Source: an uncultured Gemmatimonas sp.
Lineage (GTDB): Bacteria > Gemmatimonadota > Gemmatimonadetes > Gemmatimonadales > GWC2-71-9
NCBI GenBank assembly: GCA_964521535.1
Contig: CAZFSA010000001.1
Span: 1-63,232, forward strand
Direction: 5' to 3'
Length of the DNA: 63,232 nt
The notes below the pieces were generated by a model. It worked only from the letters and a program-made list of their open reading frames with translations, did not search any database and was not told where the DNA came from. The position numbers and the translations under genes are program-made. Shown piece by piece: positions 43,010 to 50,557 of the stretch. How positions within the stretch are numbered: position 1 is the first letter of the stretch; every line of letters starts with the position of its first letter.

Positions 43010-45103
43010 TCAGTAGAGCCGGATCGAGGCGCCGGCGTTGAGGGTCCAGACCAGACGGGGCAGCGACGGCGTGGCGCCTGCCGCCAGCGGGTAGAACGCC
43101 GCCCGGGTCCGGGCATAGCGGAGGAACACCCGGGCCTGGGTTCCGCCGTCGGTCCGCCGGTAGAGGTCGAGCCCCTGAGACAGCTCGGCCTGAAGCTCGG
43201 TGTTGCGGCTCCGCTGGTCGCCGAAGGGCTCGTAGCCCCAGGCCTGGGAGAGCGCGCCCGAGAGGGTGGTGGTCCGGGTGAGTGACACCTGCGCGTTGGC
43301 GCCCACCCGTTCGGTCCGCTGGGTGGTGCCGAACTCGAAGTTCTTCTGCCGCTCGACGCTCGCATCCAGGCCGCCGTTGATCCCCCGCCACGGCGGCAGG
43401 CCGAGCGACAGGCCGTGGACGATGGCCCGGAAGTCAGCCCGCTCCCGGCCCGGCTGGCGGTTGTCCTGGAACGACTGGTTCCAGCGGTAGGCCAGGTTCC
43501 AGGCCCCCGAGGTCCAGGTGGCCGAGCCTGTCTGGTTGGTGCTCCACTGGTCGGGCACGTGCGAGGCCGCGAATTCTCCGTTCACCGGCACCCCTTCACC
43601 GTACTGGCGGGTGCGCTGCCAGGCGTAGGACAGCGCGGGCCAGAACCAGGCCGTGGGTGCGGCGCCGAGAAGCTGACCCAGGGGAACGGCCACGCTCGCA
43701 CCGCGGGCGCGGGTGTGGGAGGTGAGGATCGACGGAATCCCGGCCAGGTTGTCGCGGCCGTTGGAGAGCGAGGCCTGGAGCGCCAGCGGACCCAGGCTGC
43801 CGGTCAGGTCCAGGGCGTTGGTCTCCCGGTCGGCCTGCACCCAGGCGCCAATGCTCCGGTAGAGCGGATCGACTCGCTCGTGCCGTGCTGCCGCGCCCAG
43901 CGAGGCAAGGGTCCCGGACCAGAGCCTCACTCCCTGGAGCAGTTGAAGGGCCAGCTCGCCGTAGCGGGCGCTTCGAGTCTCGGCCCGCACCGCCACCACC
44001 GCGGTATCGCCGAACAGCAGAGCGTCGGCCGGGTTCACGAATCGCGATCGGGTAAACCCGCCGGCCACCCGGATCCGCTGGCGGGCGTCGCTCAACGCCA
44101 CCTGCACGCCGAGGCCGCGGCTCTCCTCGGCGTCGGTGACCGAGCCCTGGGTGAACCCGCTCCGCGGCAGCAGCGAGCCGTCGAGTCCGGAGATGTCGAG
44201 ATGAATCGCCCCGGGGCGGCTCGGCAGCAGCTCCAGGCTGAGCGTCGCGGCCGCCAGGCGGTGGTCGGGCTGCGCCAGGCCGAACGGGTTGCTCCAGCCC
44301 ACCACGTTGCTCCCGTTCAGCACCGCCGCCTCCAGCTCCGCCCCGCGCCAGAGCTGGGCGCCGGCCATGAGGCCGCGGCTCGAGAACCCGCTCACCAGGT
44401 GCCGGTTGGCGCCTGTCGCCAGGTGGCCCAGGCCCAGCCGCGCGCCGCCGCGCGCGAGCCGGACCTGGTAGTCGGCCAGATCCAACGCCGGGGCGTCGAG
44501 CTGTCGTTCGCCCCAGCGGAGCCGCTGGGTCTCTTCGGTGACGCCCAGCGCGTTGCCCCGGAACGCCAGTTCCCAGCCGCTTCGGGAGAGCGCGCTCTCC
44601 AGACCCAGCCGGAAGGTCAGATCCTGGTAGGTGCGCCGGGGCGGGGCCGGATCGCCGTGCGGCACCCGCTGGTCGAGCTGGCCGGTGCTGGTGAGATCGA
44701 GGCTTGGTACCGTCCGCGACCGCTCCAGCCCGCCGCGGGTGAGCACCCGGAGCGGTGCGCGACCCACTTCCTGCCAGGCACCGTCGGCGGTCACCAGGTA
44801 GGCCACCACCTCCGACTCGCCGGTCGGCAGCCGCCAGGCGGTGGGCCGGTAGCGGGCCCGCCGGCCGCGCACTTCCAGTTCCGCGGACACGTCGGTGTTG
44901 GCCACGATGACGGCCAGGCGTTCGTCCTGGCGCAGGTCCCGGCTCAGGGTGAGATCGACGGGTGCTCGGCCCGAGCGATAGCGGTCGGGCGTCCAGGCCG
45001 GGGTGACGGCCAGGTCCTGTGCCGTGGCGGCGGGAGCCAGGGCGCCCACCAGGGCGGTCAGGATCAGCAGGGTGCGAGGGGTCATGGCACCGGCTCCCGT
45101 CAT
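43010..45103 (-). CDS. outer-membrane beta-barrel-like protein, unknown function
   Basis: 697 aa with a signal peptide (alternative start ATG 45085). Alternating amphipathic strands, C-terminal ...NAGASIRLY (aromatic terminus). Confidence 0.72.
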   Translation of the reverse strand: MTGAGAMTPRTLLILTALVGALAPAATAQDLAVTPAWTPDRYRSGRAPVDLTLSRDLRQDERLAVIVANTDVSAELEVRGRRARYRPTAWRLPTGESEVVAYLVTADGAWQEVGRAPLRVLTRGGLERSRTVPSLDLTSTGQLDQRVPHGDPAPPRRTYQDLTFRLGLESALSRSGWELAFRGNALGVTEETQRLRWGERQLDAPALDLADYQVRLARGGARLGLGHLATGANRHLVSGFSSRGLMAGAQLWRGAELEAAVLNGSNVVGWSNPFGLAQPDHRLAAATLSLELLPSRPGAIHLDISGLDGSLLPRSGFTQGSVTDAEESRGLGVQVALSDARQRIRVAGGFTRSRFVNPADALLFGDTAVVAVRAETRSARYGELALQLLQGVRLWSGTLASLGAAARHERVDPLYRSIGAWVQADRETNALDLTGSLGPLALQASLSNGRDNLAGIPSILTSHTRARGASVAVPLGQLLGAAPTAWFWPALSYAWQRTRQYGEGVPVNGEFAASHVPDQWSTNQTGSATWTSGAWNLAYRWNQSFQDNRQPGRERADFRAIVHGLSLGLPPWRGINGGLDASVERQKNFEFGTTQRTERVGANAQVSLTRTTTLSGALSQAWGYEPFGDQRSRNTELQAELSQGLDLYRRTDGGTQARVFLRYARTRAAFYPLAAGATPSLPRLVWTLNAGASIRLY

Positions 45104-45859
45104 CCAGGCGATGGGAATGGAGCGCGCCCGCGACCGTGCCGGCTCCCGTGCCGGACCGGGTCAGAGGCTCCGTCCCGAAGCTCGGAAACCCGACGGGTGT
45201 CGGATTACGGGGGGGAACGGGCGACGCCTCGAACCGGGCGGGCGACACTTCAAGAGCGACGGTTCGGGGCGGAACTGGACATCGTGGCGTCGCGGCGGGT
45301 GCCGGGGGGTCAGGTGACCCGGTACGACGCCTGAGGGGGTGGGCGTGGTGCTCGCGGTGACCGGACGGACGGAGCGGATCCGAGGCGTGGGGCACGCCGG
45401 GCCCCCGCTGGGCGTTTCCGCGCGCGGCCCGCAGCCTAAGTCCCACAGGCTGCGAGCCGCGGTCAGGGCGCAACTCGAGGGGTAGCAGCGGGTTGTGAGG
45501 ACAGGAGGCCGGCCGAGGGGGCGGGTTATTCCTGCGAGCCCTTGCAGCATAAGGTGGAGCCACATTCGCTGCAGGACCACGTAACCTCCTGTGGGGCCGA
45601 CAATTCCGGGCCGCAGTGAGCTGGCGGCCCATAGTGACTTGGGCAGCGGGCTCTGAAGGGTGTGCGACTTATGCGGCAGGCCATGCAACCACGCGCGGTG
45701 GCTCCGTCCAGCCGGTGGTTCGGGAAGTGCTATCTTGGCAGGTACTTAGGCGCGCCGTCGAGTCATCCGACGGGAGCTTGGTGCAGGCGGAACTGGCGCG
45801 TTCCGCTCACCCAGGTGATAGGATTCCGCAGTCTAATCACAGTTAGCTCTCAGGGGTGA

Positions 45860-47269
45860 ATGATGCTTTCATTCGCGACCGACTTTCCGATAAAGCACAC
45901 CCACGGGTCGGCTGAGTTTCTGCGGGCGATCCACACCTGGGTTCTCGGATCGCCACACACCCGGCTCAGCCAAGCTGACCTCGGGGAACTCCTGGGCTCG
46001 ACGGAATCGCACATTCAGAAAGGCAACGAATCAATCGACTGTCTGCAGTTCTCGGCGGCCAGCGAGGATGCTGTGGCCATCAGATACACCAGACACGACG
46101 ACGGCCTTGAGTGGACCACAGCTGTCGTGTTCTCACGGACCACTTCGGACTCCTGGGTCGGCATCCGAGTATCCTGTGAATCGGGCCGCCCCGCGGCCCG
46201 CCTACCAGCAGCGAAGAAGCCGGTTCTGGTCCGGACCCTTCTGGACAATCTGGGAGGAGCGGCTGATGGAGCACTTCTTGTCAGTAGTGTGCCTCTCCGC
46301 CTGAACAACACAGATATCGACGTTGCCGCTCGCTTGATCACGGGAACGGCCGGCTGTCGTCTTCCGATCGTCTATGTAAGCGCAAGGTTCCAGGGAAGCT
46401 ACATAGTCGATAGCGACCGCCTGCCGCGTGAGCTCGCGGGAATGGCTCATGTTGTCGTCGAGCCGAACCGGCCGTTCTCGCTCCGTCTAAAGCTTGAAGT
46501 CGATTCCGAGAACGTCTACGGCGGAACCGTCGGCGTTTACTGGCCTGATGGTGGAGGCCGACGTTCTTTTTTCGTCGGACGAGAGTTCGAGTCGCAAGAT
46601 GACATCGCTCGTGCGATCTTCGACGAGATCCGCACGGCACTGACCAACCGGCGACCGTTAGATAGATGTACTTGGGCACATGTTCAAGAGAGTGCGTCAC
46701 GCCAAGCCATCGAGGCGCTTCAGGCTTCGGGCTCGCTCGAGGTTCAGAAGTACATCGAAACGTTCGACAAAGAGCTCGTAGCAAAGTCCCAGCGCCTCGA
46801 GGATGCGAACCGGGAAATCACGCGTCTGCAAGCGGAGCTTCGGATCCATGAGGCACGCCTCGCGGCCCGCACCGGTTCGCTCTTGCGAACAGGCGCCGAG
46901 CAGGACCTCTACCCAAACGAAGTGTTGGGCATCCTGCGAGACGCAATTGAGGATGCAGCGACCCGCGTACCACAAGATAGCAGGCGCCAGCATGTGCTTA
47001 GTGCCGTTCTCCAGGCGAACCCGATGAACGAGGACATCGCTGGCACCAAACGAGAACGGCTGAAACAGCTCCTCAAAGGTTCCAAGGGGATCGATGCGAA
47101 GGTACGGCGTGGGCTTGAGGAGTTGGGCTTCACGATCAGTGACGAGGGTAAGCACTACAAGATCGTGTTTCAGGACGATGACCGTTACACGTTTACGCTC
47201 CCGAGGAGCGGTAGCGATCATCGTGGAGGCTTGAATGCCGCGGCTGATATAGCGAGGCTACTGTTCTGA
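45860..47269 (+). CDS. hypothetical 469-aa protein: unknown N-domain, coiled coil, HicA-like C-terminal domain
   Basis: Clean 469-aa ORF in lower-GC DNA with many A/T-ending codons. Central heptad-like stretch (KELVAKSQRLEDANREITRLQAELRIHEARLAA). C-terminus LEELGFTISDEGKHYKIVFQDDDRYTFTLPRSGSDHRGGLNAAADIARLLF resembles the HicA/YcfA fold pattern (from memory). Confidence 0.75.
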   Translation: MMLSFATDFPIKHTHGSAEFLRAIHTWVLGSPHTRLSQADLGELLGSTESHIQKGNESIDCLQFSAASEDAVAIRYTRHDDGLEWTTAVVFSRTTSDSWVGIRVSCESGRPAARLPAAKKPVLVRTLLDNLGGAADGALLVSSVPLRLNNTDIDVAARLITGTAGCRLPIVYVSARFQGSYIVDSDRLPRELAGMAHVVVEPNRPFSLRLKLEVDSENVYGGTVGVYWPDGGGRRSFFVGREFESQDDIARAIFDEIRTALTNRRPLDRCTWAHVQESASRQAIEALQASGSLEVQKYIETFDKELVAKSQRLEDANREITRLQAELRIHEARLAARTGSLLRTGAEQDLYPNEVLGILRDAIEDAATRVPQDSRRQHVLSAVLQANPMNEDIAGTKRERLKQLLKGSKGIDAKVRRGLEELGFTISDEGKHYKIVFQDDDRYTFTLPRSGSDHRGGLNAAADIARLLF

Positions 47270-47349
47270 GAGCTAACAACCGGTTGCAGCGGACGGTCCA
47301 CTGCGCGGCCCGCCGCTGAACCGGAGCGTTATGTCACAAGGAACACTGC

Positions 47350-47892
47350 GTGCCGTACTTAGTCACGGAAGTGAAAGCCCATTGTTGGCCGAGCGTCGAA
47401 GCTGTAGAGGAGGCGCTTCGGGCCTTTGGCCTATCAGTGAGCGCAATGGAGGAGGTTCTTCGCTCGTGCTCCCATCCCGCGGCGCCTCGAGATGGCGTCG
47501 GCTTTCAGCTTGATCTAGGCCCCACGATGGAACGGCACCTGTCCACCGTGCTGTCGCAAGATGGGCTGCGGCCGGCGAGCACACGCTACTCCCAGAACCT
47601 GAATGAGAACGCTGATCTTGCGTTTGAATGCGACCGCTCTGGCAGGCGTGTATTCGTCGAAATCGAGTTCCGTCCTAACGTGGAGAAGGACCTCGTGAAG
47701 TTTCAGATCGGTACGAATACCGGCTCTCTGGCCGTCGCCGTGCTCATCGTTACCACAGACCGTACCTCCGTCAACGCTGGCTACACCACCATGCCGGAGT
47801 TCGGTAAGTTTGAGCGCGTCATCGAAGAACTCAGGCCGGCTTACCCCTTGCTGATGCTCGGCTTTCGCGGCCAGCACCGGCTGGGGTCGTGA
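47350..47892 (+). CDS. BglII/BamHI-fold PD-(D/E)xK nuclease-like protein (180 aa)
   Basis: GTG 47350 is preceded by AAGGAA. The core ADLAFECDRSGRRVFVEIEFRPNVEKDLVKFQIG...LAVAVLIVT...YPLLMLGF gives D-x8-E-x-E then K. From memory this is the same spacing as BglII Asp84/Glu93/Gln95. Confidence 0.65.
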   Translation: MPYLVTEVKAHCWPSVEAVEEALRAFGLSVSAMEEVLRSCSHPAAPRDGVGFQLDLGPTMERHLSTVLSQDGLRPASTRYSQNLNENADLAFECDRSGRRVFVEIEFRPNVEKDLVKFQIGTNTGSLAVAVLIVTTDRTSVNAGYTTMPEFGKFERVIEELRPAYPLLMLGFRGQHRLGS

Positions 47893-47963
47893 GCTGAGCA
47901 GCCGGGGACCCGGCTGACACAGGACCGGGGAGATGGGTAACACGCTTCTCCCTAGGGAAGTGG

Positions 47964-48610
47964 GCCCCGGTGATGCGGCGGTGCGTTCGTCAAAGCGGCC
48001 GAACAGGGTGTCATAATAGACGGTGTTCCACAGATTGTTGGCAAGCTCCTGGAAGCCGACGTACTCGTGGTTGAGGGCCTGACTCAGGACGTGCTGGCCG
48101 GAATGCAGGAGGAAGGTGCCGGCCCCGCTGAGCTTGCGGACCTCGAAGTGGCAGGGGGAGGGCCGGGGGGAAGGGCTCCAGCGCGAGGCGCGCCTTTCGT
48201 CGTCGAGCGCTTCATGCGGCCGCAGTTCGTTGTAGGTGACACGGAATCGGTTGAAGACCCGCCGTTGCAGGTTCAGGTTGGCGGCGGGGGGCCGGGTAGC
48301 GCGGCCCTTGAGCGTCTTGAGGAGCCGTTCGTGGGCCCCGTTCACCTTGGGTCTGCGCCGGGTGATCCGCTGGTGGACAATCCCGAGCTGGAGCCACCAG
48401 ACGTTGAGGCGGTTGAGGCCGTGGATCCCGGTGGAGGCGAACGGCGTGCCCTTGTCGCCACGGTCCCTCCGGGAGGCCATAGGTGCGATACAGGAGCCGG
48501 AGGTGGGGCTTCACGCACGCCCCGCTGACATCGAGCAGTCACCCATGTGCCCGGACACCTGTCACCTATGTACCCCGGTTATACCCACGCGATGCACAAC
48601 CAGGGGAATC
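47964..48610 (-). mobile_element. decayed IS481-family transposase remnant (N-terminally truncated, frameshifted pseudogene)
   Basis: Track ORF 47515..48480 aa 1-170: DRGDKGTPFASTGIHGLNRLNVWWLQLGIVHQRITRRRPKVNGAHERLLKTLKGRATRPPAANL...YNELRPHEAL...GRFDERT. This resembles the C-terminal half of the IS481 rve domain (...DNGxPFAS...GI.H.RI.PGRPQ.NGRHER.HRTLK.E..RPPA...YN.ERPHEAL). The preceding LYRTYGLPE is in another frame (ORF 48212..48514), so there is at least one frameshift. An in-frame TGA lies just upstream, and no intact N-terminus is present. Confidence 0.7.
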
Positions 48611-48763
48611 GAGCCGCCGGCGGCTGCGTTGCCCCAGCTCTTTTGCAGTGCGTAGGCAGCCTCGCCAAGGTGATCGCCAGTGCTCACGCGGGCTCCGTTG
48701 CTGCGTGGCTCCGATGCGGGCCGAGAACAGGCTTCCTTCCCGATGGACTAGGAATGCAACGCC

Positions 48764-49267
48764 ATGATGGATATCGAGAAGATTCCGAGACCGATCGTTC
48801 CGGGGGCAGAAATGGAGGCATTAGAGCGCTTCTATCCTGACGTGACATGGACCGGGACCATCGAAGCGGGCGGCATGGGCCCAGGCACCCCCGCACAGAC
48901 GGCGACGGGCTGGGGTAGGCACGAGCGCATCCAGGATGGGCGCTGGATCGTCGGCACCTACGAGCAGGATCAACGGCTGCTCGACGGCACGTTTGTGCTT
49001 CGCGGGCAACTGCACTGGGTCGTTGGCTGGGACCCGACGAACGGCGAGTATCGTGCCACACTCGCCGACAACTACGGCCACGCCGACGTCATGCGCGGGC
49101 ACATCAGTGGTGACCAGCTGGTCTTCGAGAGCATCGGCGATCCTCCCGTTCGCCTCCGTCTGACCTGGGACACTTCAGACCCGAACGACATCACCTGGCG
49201 AAACGAGGTGTCCATGAACGGTGGTCCGTGGTCGCTGGTCGAGGCCCATCACATGACCCCCGTCTGA
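48764..49267 (+). CDS. DUF1579-like protein
   Basis: 167 aa. The pattern ...GRWIVGTYEQD...GQLHWVVGWDPTNGEYRATLADNYG...LVFES...ITWRNEVSMNGGPW is consistent with the DUF1579 lipocalin-like family (from memory). Confidence 0.7.
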   Translation: MMDIEKIPRPIVPGAEMEALERFYPDVTWTGTIEAGGMGPGTPAQTATGWGRHERIQDGRWIVGTYEQDQRLLDGTFVLRGQLHWVVGWDPTNGEYRATLADNYGHADVMRGHISGDQLVFESIGDPPVRLRLTWDTSDPNDITWRNEVSMNGGPWSLVEAHHMTPV

Positions 49268-49288
49268 CAACAGCTGAGGGAGGCATGG

Positions 49289-49516
49289 ATGAGAGTACTA
49301 GCATTCGTTGGCTGCATTGCTGGAATCCTGCTCGGCGGTGTCTGGCTGCTGCAAGGACTGGCCCTGATTACGGTGAAGCCGATCCTCTGCTTTGCAGATT
49401 GCCAGCCACTGGAGGGTCCGTCGGCGACGTGGGCCTTGATCGGTGCTGGGCTCCTAGTGGCAAGCGCGCTGGGAGTCGCCCGCCTGCGCCGATCGCGGCG
49501 CCGGGCTGGGACGTAG
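49289..49516 (+). CDS. small two-TM membrane protein (75 aa)
   Basis: ATG 49289 lies 5 nt after GAGGGAGG. Product MRVLAFVGCIAGILLGGVWLLQGLALI...WALIGAGLLVASALGVARLRRSRRR. Confidence 0.5.
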   Translation: MRVLAFVGCIAGILLGGVWLLQGLALITVKPILCFADCQPLEGPSATWALIGAGLLVASALGVARLRRSRRRAGT

Positions 49517-50557
49517 TCACGGGTGCTGGTGACCGTCTCTCCCCCGTGCCGGGCGCCGCCCGGCCACCCCACCCATCCGCTCCACTCCTCCCATGTGCTC
49601 GCCCATCATCCACCAGTGCTCCAGGTCCATCACGTTGCGGGAGCCATCCTGGAACTCGTCCAGCGCGGCCTCGATCGCGCGGGCCTTCTCGGCGCGCGGC
49701 ACCAGGGGAGAGGCCAGGATGTCCGAGATGATATCGTGCAGCATGTGAAGGTTGTCGAAGACGATCGCCGCCCGCGGGTGCCGCTCGCTGAACCGGGGGG
49801 CGACCGCGCTGGTCATCGGCATCACCTCGGGAAATCGGAGCGAGTCCACCATCACCCAGAACCGGGCCACCGTCTCGCTTACCCCGTCCCGGACCTCGGC
49901 CGCATCCTCCGGAGCCGCGCCCTCCGCGGCTTCGACCAGCGGCTCGTAGAGCCCCACCTGGAGCCAGTGATAGGCCCAGATCAGTCCGTTGAACCGGGGA
50001 TTCCGCTTCCGGAAGGTCTGGCTGAAATACTGCTCGTCCATCAGCTCCATCACCTTGGGCCGGGTGGTGAAGGCCAGCTTGCGGTTGGAGAGGTAGTAAT
50101 CGGTCACCCGCTCCACCATCGCGCGCCGCTCCTCAGGACTCAATCGGCGATCGGCGTAGAGGTCGTAGATCTGCCGGTGGAGGACGTGGGCCCAGTCGAA
50201 CATCTGCTTGGCGCGCCAGGCCATCCGGGCGTAGTTCGGCATGATCGCCTCTTCCGCCACGGCGAACCGCGGGGGGCGGCGGAGGAGATCGCGGGTAAGA
50301 AAGCCGAACTCCCGTTCCTCCAGCCGTTCCGGCGGCGCTTCCGGCCTGGCATACAGGACCTCGTACAGCACCGCATGCCCGTAGTCAAACGCGTTGAAGA
50401 GCCGGGCGGCATCGGGGAACTCGCGGCGAAACGACCAGTTGAACCGGCCCGGGTAGTGGAACTGCTCGTCCCGACCCTGGGCAGCCAGCTCGGCGGCAAG
50501 GCCGGCCAGGAGCGAGAGCAGGGCGCCGACGATCACGCCGCGAGATGGGCGCGTCAT
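49517..50557 (-). CDS. secreted His-rich helical protein, unknown function
   Basis: The real gene is the 3' 346 codons of track ORF 49517..50815. ATG 50557 is preceded by GAGGAGG and overlaps the upstream TGA. Signal peptide VIVGALLSLLAGLAAELAAQ. Repeated H-containing motifs (FDYGHAVLYEVLY, WAHVLHRQIYDLY, FDNLHMLHDIISD). Confidence 0.7.
   Translation of the reverse strand: MTRPSRGVIVGALLSLLAGLAAELAAQGRDEQFHYPGRFNWSFRREFPDAARLFNAFDYGHAVLYEVLYARPEAPPERLEEREFGFLTRDLLRRPPRFAVAEEAIMPNYARMAWRAKQMFDWAHVLHRQIYDLYADRRLSPEERRAMVERVTDYYLSNRKLAFTTRPKVMELMDEQYFSQTFRKRNPRFNGLIWAYHWLQVGLYEPLVEAAEGAAPEDAAEVRDGVSETVARFWVMVDSLRFPEVMPMTSAVAPRFSERHPRAAIVFDNLHMLHDIISDILASPLVPRAEKARAIEAALDEFQDGSRNVMDLEHWWMMGEHMGGVERMGGVAGRRPARGRDGHQHP

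Follow-up and report, generated by a model that had tools for sequence, protein, structure and literature searches.

The stretch of DNA analyzed here (the window) comprises 63,232 nucleotides of contig CAZFSA010000001.1 from an uncultured Gemmatimonas sp. (GCA_964521535.1), and contains two neighboring open reading frames (ORFs) on the plus strand: ORF A (45860..47269; 469 aa from the first ATG) and ORF B (47350..47892; 180 aa). The two are co-directional and separated by 80 nt. Family alignment places the true start of gene A at the second ATG (45863), so that the 469-aa ORF recorded in a first-pass annotation of the window, which had proposed A and B as a two-gene defense module, stands as an ORF, and the protein has 468 aa. 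Both genes lie in a foreign island of low G+C (45500..50200), delineated by the composition profile and by the G+C at third codon positions (GC3) in a genome of roughly 72–75% GC. Across positions 45750–47750 the G+C is 0.58–0.61 as compared with 0.72–0.75 in the flanks, and GC3 is 0.66 for gene A, 0.70 for gene B and 0.66–0.77 for the island genes, as compared with 0.88–0.90 for the flanking host genes. The spacing, the lower G+C and the A/T-ending codon usage unlike that of host genes were all read correctly in the first pass, and the island DNA is foreign and mobile. Taking the evidence together with the functions proposed below, we consider it likely that each of the two genes is carried by an integron cassette of its own, and that the two cassettes are independently mobile.

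Cassette A measures 1,486 bp (45843..47328, plus strand), as judged by the breakpoints of its homology with L116, the locus of the closest A relative with context (L-numbers are labels of the compared loci or contigs carrying A or B relatives). It starts with the T that follows the G|TT crossover in GTTAGCTC (45842–45849) and ends with the G of the R' GTT (47328–47330), which puts the crossover points at 45842|45843 and 47328|47329. Upstream of A, the likeness between the window and L116 begins exactly at GTTAGCT; past the A stop codon, near-perfect identity continues for 59 nt (47270–47328) and stops exactly at ...GAGCGTT. The sequence GTTAGCTC is the exact reverse complement, in 8 of 8 positions, of GAGCTAAC, which directly follows the stop codon of gene A and constitutes the R'' box of a 65-nt attC site (47270..47334, plus strand) identified by fold, profile and conservation. 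The remaining boxes are L'' CCGGTT-G-CAGCGG, L' CCGCTG-AACCGG and R' GTTATGT. At −21.5 kcal/mol (z = −3.85, with 0 of 200 shuffles as good), the bottom strand folds as a canonical attC hairpin, in which an unpaired spacer separates the R-box stem from the L-box stem, and the latter contains extrahelical bases and ends in a terminal loop; the top strand reaches −17.2 kcal/mol. Over the 62 nt compared, the site is 96.8% identical to that of L116, whereas the ORFs are 78.5% identical. The cassette boundaries and the attC site are direct observations.

An attC sequence profile (R1), built from 11 attC sites of integrase-linked arrays, gave one strong match in the window, at 47270–47334 (E = 1.9e-13). 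A covariance model with structure was not obtained, as RNAalifold found no consensus pairs and MAFFT misaligned the variable loops; the sequence-only profile was still discriminating. GC-rich DNA folds readily, and a structural attC scanner called 11 sites in the window where shuffles of this 70%-GC DNA gave about 4.7; hairpins alone are therefore weak evidence, and the scanner was not used for calling sites. This bears on whether the element after A could be a Rho-independent terminator or a chance GC-rich hairpin, the island having arrived by some other route; no T-tract terminator was reported at the element. We regard that explanation as extremely improbable: the AAC/GTT boxes of the element are canonical, the homology breakpoints fall exactly at G|TT, R'' is the exact reverse complement of the first bases of cassette A, conservation of the element reaches 97% as compared with 78.5% for the ORF, the profile match is strong, and the near-identical copy in L116 belongs to an array that begins with an integron integrase (IntI).

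Cassette B (47329..47895, plus strand), recognized by its start at TTATGTCACAAGGAA and by homology with L011 and L117, is truncated at its 3' end and has lost its attC site. Sequence common to the window, L011 and L117 begins only at GTTATG, and the homology of the window to other B cassettes stops 3 nt past the B stop codon, where their attC sites would begin. Further downstream lies a remnant of an IS481-family transposase (approximately 48196..48456, minus strand; Pfam rve_3, E = 1e-8; NCBIfam transpos_IS481, E = 1.3e-12), of which only about 85 C-terminal residues are left (profile positions 195–278 of 284). The first-pass annotation had identified this insertion sequence (IS) correctly, but the remnant sits about 300 nt past the stop codon of gene B and does not directly abut it. 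It probably accounts for the loss of the B attC and for the interruption of the array. Because there is no integrase, one intact attC, and a missing B attC beside the IS481 remnant, the window is a short, decayed, integrase-less array in the low-GC island, comparable to the clusters of attC sites lacking integron integrases (CALIN).

Relatives of both genes are found in integrons. Integrase genes are observed near A relatives: in L116, the relative (79% identity) is two genes from an integron integrase (TIGR02249, 434 bits, cutoff 265), and in L053 an IntI (53% identical) is encoded on the opposite strand, with at least eight attC sites in the same orientation around the A relative. In L011, L086 and L117, attC sites on either side enclose B as the sole gene of its cassette, and the attC of B is present in the relatives L011, L077, L085, L086 and L117. 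The reverse complement of the cassette start, GCGGCATAAC, occurs 6 nt after the stop codon of the B relative in L011 and L117, and in L011 the B relative is followed by a 110-nt attC (z = −5.6). Under a strict cassette test, which compares the first 8-mer of the cassette with the R'' box and requires exact reverse complementarity, the signature was present at 4 of the 45 distinct A loci and at 4 of the 25 B loci, and in none of 280 shifted control windows.

Further A relatives were observed with attC sites in various states. In a Caulobacteraceae metagenome-assembled genome (L030:685–4035), the A relative is one cassette of a typical sedentary chromosomal integron array with at least five near-identical attC repeats of about 131 nt (GGCCTAAC...GTTAGGCC; hairpins of −58 to −62 kcal/mol). 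The attC after the A relative of Geothrix fermentans (L016:11411–11472) has TATC...GATA instead of AAC...GTT; both R boxes have changed complementarily, such that the stem is kept and the canonical crossover triplet is lost, and this recombination site has perhaps been inactivated or become a variant one. Decay of the same attC is visible after the A relative in L012 (2140–2210; right half only, CCGCTGAACCGGAGTGT) and directly after the A stop codon in L013/L024 (left half, then an internal deletion), which suggests that A cassettes become fixed outside active integrons. A contig from a sister strain (L119; Logan SRR12977061, 4318 bp) is identical to the window over 756 nt of upstream sequence and over the attC, and its assembly terminates exactly at the GTT of the A attC; this end is compatible with population-level variation after cassette A but proves nothing.

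The first-pass annotation had read A as a sensor or regulator and B as its nuclease effector, together forming one anti-phage or abortive-infection system. Such a pair would agree with the tight co-directional arrangement, with the sensor-like domains of A and the conserved nuclease residues of B described below; moreover, A often has a tightly linked, variable co-directional neighbor, a pattern that can mimic swappable effectors. We analyzed 60 loci with an A relative from species-representative genomes and added 40 metagenomic B loci, calling neighbors with a GC3-filtered gene caller since a longest-ORF catalogue mis-called genes in high-GC DNA. No B relative was found within 10 kb of A at any of the 60 species-representative loci. 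Counting all loci, A relatives are present at 73 and B relatives at 44, and the window alone has both: the partner is missing from each of the 72 other A loci and each of the 43 other B loci, so that the co-occurrence in other genomes expected of a two-gene module is not seen and the module proposed in the first pass falls. The independent distribution of the two genes is also evident at closer range. Where the DNA upstream of B extends over 1.5 kb or more, as at about 17 loci, it contains no A; what precedes the three closest B relatives for which upstream DNA could be used (89%, 83% and 77% identity) is unrelated DNA or unrelated genes, and a gene other than B follows the closest A relative with context. 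The neighbors of A and of B are almost all unique to each locus, and A has no recurrent partner. In addition, between the two genes lies an attC site at which homology breaks exactly at G|TT, A has a HicA-like effector domain of its own and is related to a protein, HEC-07, that works as a single gene, and B is found as a one-gene cassette with its own attC. Based on these observations, a joint A/B system appears very unlikely. The attC site, which takes up most of the 80-nt gap and separates two cassettes, explains why the genes co-occur in the window only, and A is next to B by cassette insertion and not by shared function.

Gene A (45863..47269, plus strand) was characterized by means of the HEC-07 profile, an AlphaFold2 (AF2) model and comparisons with HicA. 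Its product comprises an HEC-07-type N-terminal module (residues ~1–262), a long helix or coiled coil with a helical bundle (~271–421), and a HicA-like RNase domain (~412–468); the first pass had quoted the coiled coil and the C-terminal segment correctly and could assign the N-terminal region of roughly 270 aa to no family. No Pfam family covers full-length A, but the PADLOC model HEC-07 matches residues 52–334 (E = 1.1e-10 and 7.3e-8), with model PDLC04161 aligned at profile positions 72–370 of 553. The same model matches 83 of 92 diverse A-family members, and 24 of the 92 match PADLOC 'HicA-like' (best E = 1.7e-7). With clusters defined at 50% identity, an exhaustive search recovered 1,684 cluster representatives of the A family, 458 of them at E ≤ 1e-30. 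Nearly all members have 460–475 aa and align end to end down to about 30% identity; the family is without a Pfam model and is annotated 'hypothetical' everywhere.

The AF2 model of A (mean predicted local distance difference test score, pLDDT, 90.4) shows a β-rich N-terminal domain, an α/β middle domain, a helix at 294–335, a helical bundle, and a C-terminal unit of αβββα topology (DSSP: H412–421, E423–428, E431–436, E443–447, H455–467). His431 in this unit, encoded at nt 47153–47155, is invariant in 92 sequences; W26, D135, P168, E200 and G221 are invariant in the N-terminal module of the family. A profile of the C-terminal unit has E. coli HicA as its best PDB sequence match (E = 0.19), 13 of 49 family members touch Pfam HicA_toxin (best E = 0.007), and hhalign aligns the A C-terminus to E. 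coli HicA with 89% probability, pairing His431 with the His of the GSNH motif. Profile, PADLOC and hhalign comparisons thus support the HicA resemblance noticed in the first pass. Pfam applied to the isolated C-terminus of the window's own A gave nothing, and the signal emerges only across many family members. Foldseek hits of A are weakly thioredoxin-like (probability up to 0.91 but E > 0.1) and leave the N-terminal fold identities unconfirmed, and phmmer and hmmsearch comparisons of A and B with PDB sequences returned coiled-coil or annexin noise only. From these comparisons of sequence and predicted structure, A is best described as a protein of the HEC-07 type whose RNase is a HicA-type domain in place of the RelE-type one.

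HEC-07 (Hma-embedded candidate 07) is a single-gene candidate found within Hma defense systems; it combines AdoMetDC-like, thioredoxin-like and C-terminal RelE-family RNase domains, and belongs to the 7 of 9 candidates with which phage plaquing on E. coli was reduced (Payne et al., bioRxiv 10.1101/2024.01.29.577857). Like HEC-07, A is a single large polypeptide with a homologous N-terminal and middle region, ends in a small mRNA-interferase-type RNase domain with a conserved His, and occurs in mobile or defense contexts. The two differ in that: (i) the C-terminal domain of HEC-07 is of the RelE family (HP0892-like) and that of A is HicA-like; (ii) A reaches this domain via a coiled coil of about 40 residues and a helical bundle; and (iii) HEC-07 proteins have ~530–553 aa, compared with ~468 aa for A, and phage resistance was shown for the HEC-07 representative only. 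With respect to the HicA toxin (PF07927; PDB 6hpb), the A C-terminus has the predicted topology, the G-x-H with the invariant His, and the Gly-Phe and Pro-Lys/Arg positions. HicA, however, is a free protein of about 60 aa that is neutralized by a separate HicB, whereas in A a 410-aa N-terminal region precedes the domain in the same polypeptide; the variable neighbors of A included no HicB-type partner gene.

The genomic settings of A relatives outside the window are diverse. In L001–L010, L025 and L027 (e.g. L001:4268–11684), a block common to Pseudomonas aeruginosa, Caldimonas thermodepolymerans, Ralstonia mannitolilytica and several metagenomes places the A relative behind an XRE and M78 peptidase pair in a prophage-like element. 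The order is two minus-strand genes (~413–417 aa and ~321 aa, both without a Pfam family), then XRE (115 aa), Peptidase_M78 (301 aa), the A relative, DUF2924 and a large serine recombinase, downstream of which lie phage-like genes (Bro-N, AAA_24). Protein identities of 91–100% across genera imply very recent horizontal spread of this block. Elsewhere, a regulator with WYL and WCX domains is encoded 96 nt upstream of, and co-directionally with, A relatives of 72% identity (L120:4921–5904 and L121:2009–2950), as has been reported for defense-system regulators of the BrxR/CapW type. One A relative adjoins a TIR_2 protein, and YoeB/Phd also occurs beside an A relative. WYL proteins of the BrxR/CapW type and XRE plus M78 pairs of the CapH/CapP type often control defense genes. 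An A relative is also the largest cargo gene of 5.9-kb ColE1-type Klebsiella plasmids: in K. pneumoniae pKP5076-3 (L118; NZ_CP106657.1, 5,896 bp) and four sister plasmids, all small mobilizable ColRNAI clinical plasmids, a full-length A relative (34% identity, annotated hypothetical) directly follows a toxin–antitoxin pair with a TraY domain and a ParE/RelE toxin. The HEC-07 match and the WYL or XRE plus M78 regulators upstream of relatives make it plausible that A is related to defense.

The same settings raise the question of whether A is chiefly an addiction or stabilization element, a single-chain toxin with a built-in inhibitor that prevents loss of its carrier, as toxin–antitoxin cassettes do in chromosomal integrons and on small plasmids. 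Its C-terminal domain resembles the HicA toxin; relatives are located beside ParE/RelE on the small plasmids, beside YoeB/Phd, and in cassette arrays; and toxin–antitoxin cassettes are common in integron cassette arrays. Against this, the great majority of members match HEC-07, which reduced phage plaquing, relatives stand directly behind regulators that are established as typical of defense genes, and a single polypeptide does not offer the unstable-antitoxin logic of classical addiction. We judge a chiefly stabilizing role to be a reasonable but fairly improbable alternative; addiction and defense are not mutually exclusive. On present evidence from the family, A is a probable stand-alone anti-phage RNase and would represent a new effector variant of a known single-gene defense.

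Gene B (47350..47892, plus strand; 180 aa) encodes a solitary nuclease of the BamHI/BglII fold, as judged by AF2, Foldseek and conservation. The Pfam family Endonuc-BglII (PF09195) scores B at E = 0.013 and 15.7 bits, below the curated cutoff of 26 bits, and many of 106 B homologues carry the Endonuc-BglII tag. The AF2 model, built from 74 sequences, has a pLDDT of 96.3 and a predicted template modeling (TM) score of 0.92, and a Foldseek comparison with the PDB gave structures of OkrAI, BamHI, BglII or BstYI at each of the top 16 ranks (E between 2e-6 and 2e-3, TM score 0.52–0.66), in line with the fold recognized in the first pass. Three acidic residues, D89 (codon 47614–47616), E104 (47659–47661) and E106 (47665–47667), are invariant in the 74 family members and form the pattern D-x14-E-x-E. 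F107-R-P-N110, D114 and F118 are also invariant, and E112, K113, K117 and Q119 are at least 90% conserved, giving the family signature EFRPN-x-EKD-L-x-KFQ. The Asp of the 'ECD' motif (D95), which had been taken as catalytic in the first pass, falls in a variable column. We take the D-x14-E-x-E spacing to be nearer that of BamHI than the BglII spacing quoted in the first pass. B is full length and retains all invariant residues, and is probably an active nuclease, judging from this conservation.

The B model superposes on all four of the type IIP enzymes BamHI, OkrAI, BglII and BstYI, shares with them the invariant D...E-x-E and a conserved Lys, and at 180 aa is near OkrAI in size (192–194 residues in 3odh). 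From this group B differs in having no adjacent methyltransferase, both here and for 19 of 20 neighbors examined elsewhere, in its own signature motif, and in riding as a one-gene integron cassette. One may nonetheless ask whether B is the remnant of an ordinary type II restriction–modification system that has lost its methyltransferase, with A an unrelated neighbor. The fold would suit such an origin, an N6_N4 DNA methylase lies about 1.2 kb from one B relative (L092), and the DNA just 3' of B is disrupted beside the IS remnant. That methylase, however, is the only one among the 20 scanned neighbors of B relatives, whose neighbors otherwise include Mrr_cat, HD, FRG, XRE-M78 or HTH proteins, and the cassettes in L011, L077, L085, L086 and L117 hold B alone, bounded by attC; a solitary B is therefore the norm of the family and not the result of local loss. 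An intact B would be unexpected for an unprotected remnant, and neither GGATCC, AGATCT, RGATCY nor any other palindromic hexamer is avoided in the 63 kb, which is uninformative on the specificity of B. As the first pass had reported, there is no methyltransferase in the island; nor is there one among the 25 best of the 44 Pfam families matched by the 42 other window proteins, the 19 weaker families lying beyond these 25. Altogether, we consider a restriction–modification remnant quite unlikely. Separately, a 467-aa protein upstream of a distant B relative (L114) was considered as A-like and was rejected, being a tyrosine recombinase.

Several observations weigh against the reading of A and B as independent cassettes with the functions given above. 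The strict cassette signature occurs at so few loci that both families must reside mostly outside integrons. In the window itself, tblastn found no integron integrase in the 63 kb, the DNA upstream of cassette A has no attC-like fold (z = −1.3), so that A may have entered at an attI, a decayed attC or a secondary site, and a sigma-70 promoter scan returned zero sites, leaving the genes without an expression signal. For protein A, the lines of HicA evidence (Pfam, PDB profile and hhalign) are individually modest, the HEC-07 match is limited to the N-terminal and middle part, and Foldseek of the full-length model against the PDB gave no match at E < 0.01, each domain being a small fraction of the model.

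The two-cassette reading can be cast as a mechanism. Each cassette would have been moved independently by IntI-mediated attC recombination. In A, the HEC-07-type N-terminal module may hold the RNase inactive and sense an infection cue; upon activation, possibly through oligomerization of the coiled coil, the HicA domain would cleave RNA via His431 and the infected cell would be arrested. A would in this way act as a self-contained abortive-infection or defense RNase, a proposal that draws on the validated single-gene homologue, on autonomy on tiny plasmids and on the two kinds of upstream regulator. B would cut DNA, and the host would be protected either by a methylase encoded elsewhere or by a specificity harmless to it. 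More tentatively, and with less than even confidence, we suggest that the A family and HEC-07 form one superfamily of single-chain immune proteins in which a conserved N-terminal module, which may be a sensor that binds a ligand or has catalytic activity, is joined to mRNA-interferase domains that can be swapped (RelE or HicA), and that the B family consists of nucleases working without a dedicated methyltransferase. Under this suggestion, toxin–antitoxin logic would have collapsed into one polypeptide small enough to spread by integron cassettes, small plasmids or prophages.

Elsewhere in the island, two co-directional genes at 48764–49516 encode a DUF1579 protein (167 aa; Pfam E = 5e-7; GC3 0.77) and, starting 21 nt after it, a predicted membrane protein of 75 aa (GC3 0.68); no attC was detected around this pair. 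The ~740 nt between the host outer-membrane-like gene and cassette A (45104–45842) are without a convincing gene, and their G+C declines from 0.74 to 0.63; a perfect small palindrome, GCGGAAC-TGGCGC-GTTCCGC, is located at about 45788–45807 and is without an attC-like fold. An Rfam scan of 44800–50400 returned zero families. The other predicted window proteins are housekeeping enzymes; one window protein, unrelated to the island, matches Pfam Uma2 (PF05685, 'putative restriction endonuclease', E = 3.5e-21).

Integron cassettes that carry phage defense, the bacteriophage resistance integron cassettes (BRiCs), have already been described (Kieffer et al., bioRxiv 10.1101/2024.07.02.601719). The cassettes described here resemble BRiCs in that compact defense-type genes occur as promoterless cassettes with attC sites, homologues exist outside integrons, and arrays form small defense islands. 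Kieffer et al. and the companion chromosomal-integron study by Darracq et al., which they cite, concern class 1 and 2 mobile integrons and the Vibrio superintegron, whereas the array described here belongs to a high-GC environmental genome, is without an IntI in the window, and is partly degraded. Neither 'HEC' nor 'HicA' appears in the BRiC main text (10.1101/2024.07.02.601719), in which terms for BamHI-type nucleases were not searched.

What is new is threefold: (i) a very large 'hypothetical' family can be recognized, from its profile matches, as a putative HicA-ended variant of HEC-07; (ii) this family and a solitary BamHI-fold family circulate as integron cassettes; and (iii) the proposed two-gene system is an artifact of cassette adjacency. 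The last point removes a false lead, as adjacency in a cassette array is no evidence of a functional pair, and it affects guilt-by-association screens, since integron arrays set unrelated small genes in tight co-directional order. The methylase-less BamHI-fold nucleases are flagged as a family whose tolerance by the host calls for an explanation. The very large unannotated A family is a probable relative of an experimentally validated single-gene defense in which the RNase effector has been swapped; His431 is a concrete mutational target, and the RelE and HicA effectors offer a ready-made comparison. Finally, the window adds an environmental, high-GC example to the integron cassettes that stockpile phage-defense genes.

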